Below are positions 38,861 to 38,959 of a stretch of 64,000 nt of DNA, piece by piece. Source of the stretch: Nannocystis sp. SCPEA4 (GTDB lineage Bacteria > Myxococcota_A > Polyangia > Nannocystales > Nannocystaceae); the NCBI RefSeq assembly GCF_026626685.1, contig NZ_JAPNJX010000001.1, forward strand, positions 204,752-268,751. Reading direction: 5' to 3'. The first letter of the stretch is position 1, and each line of letters starts with the position of its first letter. The notes under the pieces are model-generated. The model had not been told where the DNA came from and searched no databases. It was given only the letters and a program-made list of their open reading frames with translations. The position numbers and the translations under genes were made by a program.

Positions 38861-38864
38861 ACGG

Positions 38865-38948
38865 ACGGACATGCGCCGAGGGGCATGTCCCTTCGAGCAT
38901 GCGTCCCGGGACATGCCCTTGCGGACATGCCCGAAGCGACACTTCTCG
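38865..38948. repeat. 14-bp-phased GGACATGYCC array, 6 units
   Basis: CATG at 38870, 38884, 38898, 38912 and 38926, plus CACT at 38940. GGGCATGTCCC (38881-38891) is the exact reverse complement of GGGACATGCCC (38908-38918). It lies in the convergent gap 38861-38959. Confidence 0.92.
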
Positions 38949-38959
38949 CCCCGCGGCCC

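Follow-up and report, generated by a model that had tools for sequence, protein, structure and literature searches.

Arrays of CATG-centred palindromes in a 14-bp register lie at gene 3' ends in Nannocystis

The window analysed here, a stretch of 64,000 nucleotides from Nannocystis sp. SCPEA4, has a G+C content of 72% and a third-position G+C of about 0.95. Its gene map was derived from codon log-odds and includes a tRNA-Met at 31251-31327; in a search of the window against Rfam, a tRNA was the only match. The interval 38861-38959 is the gap between two convergent genes, encoding a histidine kinase (+) and a pirin (-); the features of this region are:

36905-38860, + strand: PAS/V4R histidine kinase gene, with its TGA stop at 38858-38860
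38865..38948, no strand: focal array of five CATG units at 14-bp spacing plus one decayed unit, in the convergent kinase/pirin gap; orthologous arrays in N. radixulma, N. punicea, N. pusilla and N. bainbridge
38960-39898, - strand: pirin gene, with its stop (TCA) at 38960

The focal array sets in 5 nt past the kinase stop codon. Its CATG cores stand at 38870, 38884, 38898, 38912 and 38926, the five intact units span 38865-38934, and a sixth in-phase unit, which is decayed (CGACACTTCT), precedes the pirin stop. TRF reports the array with a 28-bp period and 73% matches. Proteins of Nannocystis sp. SCPEA4 and N. radixulma match the window kinase at 100% identity, and a 22-kb locus of N. radixulma is 95–98% identical to the window.

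Arrays of this kind recur throughout the window. If an array is taken to be two or more CATG at a distance of 14 or 28 bp, the window has 22, whereas 200 block shuffles gave 0.85 on average and never more than 4. Likewise, GACATG was counted 60 times in the 6.6 kb of intergenic sequence vs. 35 times in 57 kb of coding DNA, which corresponds to a 14.6-fold intergenic enrichment. Beyond the focal array, the following were catalogued:

5164..5247, no strand: array in a convergent gap; 4 CATG units plus 2 decayed ones (AATG, CATA)
8085..8154, no strand: array of 5 units in a convergent gap
10586..10736, no strand: loose unit group in a co-directional gap; GGACATGTCC at 10588, a pair at 10643/10657 and a single unit at 10726
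13258..13313, no strand: array of 4 units in a co-directional gap, 12 bp past the stop of the upstream + gene
14214..14283, no strand: array of 5 units in a convergent gap
16250..16291, no strand: array of 3 units, the middle core CAGG; fills a 43-bp intercistronic gap
19267..19338, no strand: two 2-unit arrays in a 69-bp co-directional gap
21154..21223, no strand: array in a convergent gap with mixed cores (CAGG, CCTG, CATG, CCTG, CATG)
26216..26271, no strand: array of 4 units, one core AATG, in an 81-bp co-directional gap
29757..29798, no strand: array of 3 units, the middle one decayed; fills a 38-bp gap between 3-hydroxyacyl-CoA dehydrogenase and thiolase genes
42867..42922, no strand: array-like stretch within the coding region of gene 40313-43204 (-); cores CAGG, CATG, CCTG and CATG in the 14-bp register
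47555..47610, no strand: array of 4 units in a co-directional gap between - strand genes
48458..48527, no strand: array of 5 units, one core CATT, 7 bp from the upstream stop codon
50542..50593, no strand: array with alternating CATG and CCTG cores in a 25-bp intercistronic gap, extending into a gene end
51972..52027, no strand: array of 4 units; fills a 40-bp gap 3' of a TonB-dependent receptor gene
59369..59438, no strand: array of 5 units in a co-directional gap between + strand genes
60435..60490, no strand: array filling a 43-bp convergent gap; 2 CATG units between AATG and CATC relics

The gap orthologous to the loose group at 10586..10736 carries a 4-unit array in a Nannocystis MAG (locus L032). 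The array at 29757..29798, the last CATG of which supplies a predicted start codon, is identical in N. radixulma and present in N. punicea; an array in this neighbourhood was also found in N. pusilla, in a locus where no dehydrogenase gene is called. For the TonB-dependent receptor encoded upstream of 51972..52027, a look-up by exact protein returned no record. The array-like stretch at 42867-42930 falls into the linker between a PP-binding (aa 36-84) and an AMP-binding domain (aa 133-536); it is conserved in five genomes and may be the fossil of an intercistronic array taken up by gene fusion.

The consensus of 355 units reads W-N-G-G-R-CATG-Y-C-C-N-W, or RGGR-CATG-YCCY in its short form, and is reverse-complement symmetric. 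Over 408 kb, CATG follows CATG at 14 bp 276 times, at 28 bp 169 times and at 42 bp 108 times, in contrast to only 5 pairs at 13 bp and 7 at 15 bp. The distance histogram also features side peaks at 6/8, 20/22 and 34/36 bp, because an extra CATG stands 6 bp before an in-phase one (CATGGACATG); this was counted 26 times over all Nannocystis loci, e.g., at window positions 8123-8136. The conserved parts of the arrays are CATG and the 14-bp register only. The 4-nt spacers are diverse and show no recurrent motif, TRF reports matches of only 65–85% on the arrays, and the units of one array are no more alike (3.99 of 10 flank positions identical) than units of different arrays (3.96 of 10). The units of one array are therefore not recent tandem copies of one another. 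Agreement rises slightly, to 4.37 of 10, only when a unit is compared with its direct neighbour in reverse complement, and an AC-type unit is followed by a GT-type unit 24–25 times vs. about 15 expected, so that a weak alternation is present. Even unit numbers are not preferred, arrays of five being as frequent as arrays of four; the two halves of a unit vary independently, and no self-palindromy of single units was detected beyond the column composition.

Variant cores of in-phase units beside the arrays are mostly the transversions CAGG (19 of 257 flanking positions) and CCTG (18 of 257), found among others at 21154-21223, 33741-33800, 50556 and 50584, and the transition cores CGTG and CACG are rare among the units that adjoin arrays. 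These variants suggest that the core tolerates C-M-K-G. The convergent gap at 31328-31556, in which the preliminary description of this DNA had seen a degenerate array, offers in its place only hairpins with CAGG and CCTG cores, which lie outside CATG-based detection.

The placement of the arrays depends on the orientation of the flanking genes. In the window, arrays occupy six of eight convergent, 11 of 35 co-directional and none of eight divergent gaps (Fisher, convergent vs. divergent, p = 0.007). The preliminary description had already claimed such a dependence, and most of what it reported holds: its six array-bearing convergent gaps out of eight reappeared at the same coordinates in our independent codon-based gene map, and where it saw arrays in about 12 co-directional gaps, we count 11. 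It had listed seven divergent gaps with two weak relics; the avoidance of these gaps is borne out, and our map has eight of them, none with an array by the CATG criterion.

For a wider check of array position against gene orientation, 185,579 species genomes were scanned for four CATG at 14-bp spacing, which matched at least 120 loci. Among the matches listed, 43 loci belong to seven Nannocystis genomes and show the same kind of array, and the non-Nannocystis matches are common minisatellites of 7 or 14 bp whose units are identical. The 4-unit arrays by which the 43 loci were selected lie in 27 convergent, 15 co-directional and no divergent gaps, while divergent gaps make up 34% of the intergenic bases of these loci. 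The bias persists once this ascertainment is removed: in the unselected gaps, arrays are found in 11 of 20 convergent, 19 of 97 co-directional and 2 of 47 divergent ones (convergent vs. divergent, p = 7e-6), which extends the dependence on orientation to the genus. For the window and the 43 loci together, 44 of 60 convergent (73%), 45 of 178 co-directional (25%) and 2 of 55 divergent gaps (4%) carry an array.

Within the gaps, the arrays keep close to stop codons. In co-directional gaps, the median distance from the upstream stop is 16 bp (16–17), as opposed to 150 bp to the next start, and about half of the distances from a stop to the first CATG are no more than roughly 20 nt. The first CATG keeps no fixed register to the stop codon, its distances being broadly spread over 2–20 nt. 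Array-bearing convergent gaps are covered by the array to about one half (median), and the array usually abuts one of the two stops, the nearer stop being 9.5 bp away (median). Proximity to the upstream stop and distance from the next start indicate that the arrays belong to gene 3' ends and are not merely barred from promoters. Taken together with the orientation bias, this makes a promoter-operator role unlikely, in agreement with the argument of the preliminary description, and supports a reading of the arrays as gene-end elements.

The gap between the kinase and pirin genes could be followed through five genomes. In N. radixulma, N. punicea, N. pusilla and N. bainbridge, an array likewise lies just 3' of the kinase stop, and the gap holds 4–6 CATG cores in the five genomes, or 5–7 units if decayed in-phase ones are included. 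The kinase of N. radixulma is essentially identical to that of the window and those of the other three species are 88–91% identical; in these three, the spacers of the focal gap are randomised and the register is shifted relative to the stop codon. Other orthologous gaps retain arrays as well, and a metagenomic relative with a kinase 82% identical still has them. Three distant relatives (64–70% identical), in contrast, have no arrays in 22 kb each, and the convergent gaps examined there hold plain GC hairpins or other repeats.

Between genomes that are 94–96% identical, CATG was changed at only 1 of 80 positions vs. 30 of 224 in the rest of the array (p = 0.0009); the array alignment of loci L006 and L081, which is partly non-orthologous, was excluded from this count. 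Indel columns are absent from array cores and spacers, and the few gap columns in the flanks include those of the poorly aligned L006/L081 pair. Conservation in place and the array-less relatives let the arrays appear as a Nannocystis-specific gene-end element that, judged from sequence comparison, looks to be held by selection on CATG and phase.

Differences between close genomes are 2–3 times as frequent in array flanks and spacers as at third codon positions or in other intergenic DNA, so that the arrays may represent local mutation hot spots. Fast-changing arrays are those at 38865-38934, 47555-47610 and 48458-48527 of the window compared with locus L128, and at 4687-4756 of L052 compared with L079. 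In N. pusilla (L006, approximately 3560-3850), a segment of about 93 bp with two array units is present in three tandem copies that are not found in the N. exedens orthologue, and array units can accordingly also spread by larger duplications. Some convergent gaps without CATG arrays contain other short repeats, namely GGGGCCTGTTTGT four times in L126 (5467-5585), a repeat of about 60 bp in L125 (4984-5225) and GGGCAATACGNCGACGA twice in L032 (5796-5941); L125 and L126 stem from relatives without arrays and L032 is the Nannocystis MAG, which has arrays elsewhere.

On both strands, arrays with at least four units fold far more strongly than their dinucleotide shuffles do, with a mean z of -4.8 and about -0.48 kcal per nt. 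A U-tract 3' of the arrays is absent, T amounting to 17–18% of the next 16 nt and at least four T within 8 nt occurring in at most 4%. The sole exception lies at 5247-5220 (-), where a 12-bp stem built from two array units runs into TTTTCT and resembles a canonical terminator for the gene at 5281-5799 (-). The hairpin with U-tract behind the tRNA (31328-31360), described before as the only classical terminator of the window, is consequently joined by a second one. In the array-bearing convergent gaps, no other terminator-like features were found above chance.

Signals that would betray a preferred strand are lacking. Orienting the units by gene sense leaves their profile reverse-complement symmetric, G.U has no significant advantage over A.C on the sense strand (90 vs. 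76, p = 0.31), and folding energies do not differ between sense and antisense (p = 0.15). UUCG or GNRA tetraloops in the spacers were considered and rejected, as the 4-mers vary widely without preference for a strand (TTCG 4 vs. CGAA 2; GAAA 3 vs. TTTC 3). Covariation in the orthologous focal array was not above shuffles in five genomes and two neighbour-pairing registers, both of which leave 78–79% of cells paired. Pairing between neighbours is mostly explained by the consensus and only slightly above expectation; there is, however, a tail of true inverted repeats, with 20 of 275 neighbour pairs matching at 7–8 of 8 variable positions vs. 3.9 expected. Complementary CAGG/CCTG neighbours, as possible compensatory changes, are few (4 vs. 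1). The terminator or stabiliser role at the RNA level that had been proposed for the arrays is hence not favoured by the missing U-tracts, the strand-symmetric units, the equality of G.U and A.C, the alike folding of both strands or the lack of covariation in the focal array.

Placement, adjacency to stops, folding potential, the absence of other terminator features and the plain hairpins of relatives nevertheless suggest bidirectional transcript-end elements. From the observed placement, periodicity, conservation and folding potential of the arrays we infer, tentatively and with less than even confidence, that they could act on RNA as bidirectional hairpin clusters which end or protect transcripts and are probably read by a putative CATG-specific factor. 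Each unit being a degenerate palindrome (RGGR-CATG-YCCY), transcription of either strand would yield the same series of mutually complementary motifs, which could fold into a cluster of interchangeable GC-rich hairpins right after the stop codon; owing to the purine-left and pyrimidine-right flanks, any unit could pair with any other. Such a cluster would most likely mark and protect transcript 3' ends, either by halting RNA polymerase or by blocking 3'-to-5' exonucleases after termination further downstream, and would insulate convergent as well as tandem neighbours in both directions. Structure alone does not account for the invariant CATG or for the intolerance of a 1-nt change in the spacer, and a sequence-specific factor would therefore also read the lattice of CATG in its rigid 14-nt register.

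Several results are in line with hairpin clusters at transcript ends: the placement bias and the proximity to stop codons, the strong folding, the array with stem and U-tract at 5247-5220, the lack of any other terminator-like feature above chance, the plain GC hairpins of array-less relatives, the retention of arrays in the kinase–pirin gap of five genomes despite randomised spacers, with CATG changed at 1/80 positions vs. 30/224, and the 20/275 neighbour pairs complementary beyond the consensus (3.9 expected). On the other hand, U-tracts are generally absent, units and spacer 4-mers are strand-symmetric, G.U does not exceed A.C, both strands fold equally well and the focal array fits both pairing registers at 78–79% with no covariation. 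Hairpin loops should moreover accept 3–5 nt, yet spacings of 13 and 15 bp are nearly missing; structure by itself gives no reason for the CATG core, and arrays also occur in tight operon gaps, where a terminator is unexpected. Compared with intrinsic terminators, including bidirectional ones, the arrays share GC-rich hairpins right after stops, the enrichment between convergent genes and, in one case (5247-5220), the complete stem with U-tract. They differ in their general lack of a U-tract, in their several interchangeable stems and in an invariant core that terminators do not need.

The main rival explanation, possible though on the whole unlikely, is a dimeric CATG-specific protein that would bind each palindromic unit on double-stranded DNA and polymerise at a 14-bp step, three units (42 bp) corresponding to four helical turns. 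At gene ends, such a protein lattice could serve as bidirectional roadblock or insulator, or as topological or nucleoid-organising site. It would fit the symmetry, the register and the independent half-sites better than hairpin clusters do: the spacing is rigid (276 pairs at 14 bp vs. 5 at 13 bp and 7 at 15 bp, the 28- and 42-bp steps being equally sharp) with spacers and flanks nearly free, the unit profile is reverse-complement symmetric, and the half-sites vary independently, as in an operator. The identity of CATG itself is conserved, beyond its pairing, and odd unit numbers as common as even ones (five as frequent as four) imply that the building block is not a pair of hairpins, which also counts for binding on DNA. 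MetJ met-boxes and omega heptads are tandem operator arrays to which small repressors bind cooperatively and, together with PadR sites, resemble the arrays in their short symmetric units, strict register, variable unit number and free spacers. As a lead only, the canonical operator of the PadR family, ATGT-N8-ACAT (PMC3506622), is embedded in the array, where it extends across a spacer.

Against a lattice on DNA stands the lack of a known candidate or cognate protein. Operator arrays normally sit in promoters, whereas the Nannocystis arrays lie at gene 3' ends and avoid promoters, with 2 of 55 divergent gaps occupied overall, and for such a lattice no precedent is known at 3' ends. By extrapolation from the density in the window, there would also be thousands of sites per genome. 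Furthermore, a roadblock on DNA has no obvious need to adjoin stop codons, and the surplus of perfectly complementary neighbours is not predicted.

In a more novel reading, a CATG-specific protein polymerised on the 14-bp lattice after stop codons, on DNA or on the RNA that is identical from either strand, would constitute a factor-dependent bidirectional system of transcription end and insulation, largely replacing ordinary terminator hairpins in one myxobacterial genus. We regard this as doubtful; if true, it would represent a kind of gene-boundary marking not described in bacteria.

It is improbable that the arrays are a selfish or mutational by-product without host function, whether dispersed by a transposase of REP/RAYT type or born through fold-back template switching on palindromes, and kept where they are harmless, i.e., at 3' ends. 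REPs, the spread of which is driven by a transposase, share the placement bias, some neighbouring units are perfect inverted copies, a 10-nt stem with a minimal loop of 4 nt would give the 14-bp step, and both the rapid evolution of flanks and spacers (2–3 times that of other intergenic DNA) and the triplicated two-unit segment of about 93 bp in N. pusilla agree with such an origin. Fold-back template switching could explain the birth of units and the 10 + 4 nt step. However, the copies are dissimilar (3.99/10 flank identity within vs. 3.96/10 between arrays) and conserved in place at orthologous gaps of five genomes, which weakens a purely selfish or mutational origin. CATG and register also resist decay while neighbouring positions randomise, and in long co-directional gaps the arrays lie tight to the stop codon and are not scattered over the space outside the promoter.

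There is very little to recommend a translation-level operon element, in which the array would provide the downstream start (the ATG in CATG), hide or expose it by pairing and so tune the downstream cistron: the predicted downstream start coincides with the ATG of the last CATG in six co-directional gaps (distance to start of -6), a public gene call for the 3HCDH orthologue of N. punicea agrees with the CATG start and several gaps of 25–43 bp in apparent operons are filled by arrays, but most strong arrays are convergent and have no downstream cistron, arrays in long co-directional gaps lie far from the next start, and the start positions are predictions only. Such coincidences were noted in window gaps 16258-16300, 19275-19343 and 29765-29802 and in loci L003, L015 and L032.

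Among known systems, the REP/BIME elements of enterobacteria and pseudomonads, which the distribution was said to mirror, come closest in placement. They are likewise high-copy, extragenic, palindromic and clustered with a tendency to alternate orientation, concentrated in convergent and tandem gaps and nearly absent from divergent ones; in E. coli, about 60% of REPs are convergent, 40% tandem and 1% divergent, and they have been proposed as bidirectional terminators and decay blocks (preprint 10.64898/2026.03.23.713779). In anatomy, the parallel does not hold. The Nannocystis unit measures 14 bp (a palindrome of 10–12 bp plus spacer) compared with a REP stem-loop of about 35 nt; REP/BIME copies follow a family consensus over the whole palindrome of about 20–40 nt, whereas Nannocystis units agree at about 4 of 10 flank positions with CATG alone fixed; and REP/BIME clusters have defined linker motifs in place of 4-nt spacers with no recurrent motif. 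The rigid register is a further difference, as is the occupation of convergent gaps (75% in the window vs. about 30% for REPs in E. coli), and CATG arrays were found only in Nannocystis among the matches listed and the relatives examined. No Y1 transposase was detected among 20 window proteins scanned against Pfam. As selection in place is demonstrable here, the arrays make it possible to test in nature whether REP-like placement is a matter of function or of mere tolerance.

Minisatellites, cyanobacterial STRR heptamers and MIRU-type repeats also form short-period intergenic tandem arrays, MIRUs bridging stop and start codons in operons, and the CATG-N10 search pattern likewise matched 7- and 14-bp repeats in many other phyla. 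Their units are near-identical slippage copies, whereas those of Nannocystis differ as much within an array as genome-wide. A full-text literature search on Nannocystis repeats, the motif and myxobacterial REPs yielded no description of these arrays, and the motif string led almost only to papers on p53 response elements. The CATG arrays are apparently undescribed and can be placed among the extragenic palindromic repeats of gene ends; for the mechanism of a factor-read lattice, novelty is a real possibility.

If the density of the window (18 intergenic arrays in 64 kb) is extrapolated to a genome of 12–13 Mb, about 3,000 or more arrays are to be expected, and about three quarters of convergent gaps are occupied. 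An invariant 4-bp core in a rigid 14-bp register with a free remainder is unusual among dispersed bacterial repeats and points to a specific reader. Should the arrays define transcript ends, they would provide a handle on termination and insulation in GC-rich myxobacteria, which have few canonical terminators, and could help in designing expression constructs for the natural-product gene clusters of these bacteria.

Two further features of the window were recorded. ARAGORN placed a tRNA-Ser at 47050-47130 (-) inside the aminotransferase gene 46152-47399, which Rfam did not confirm and which is probably a false positive. In-frame tandem repeats of 27–84 bp, unrelated to the CATG arrays, are present in coding regions at 5343-5593, 32439-32647, 33250-33446, 43747-43902 and 49053-49177, including, e.g., a 45-bp repeat with 5.6 copies and an 84-bp repeat with 1.9 copies in an OmpA/TSP_3 protein.
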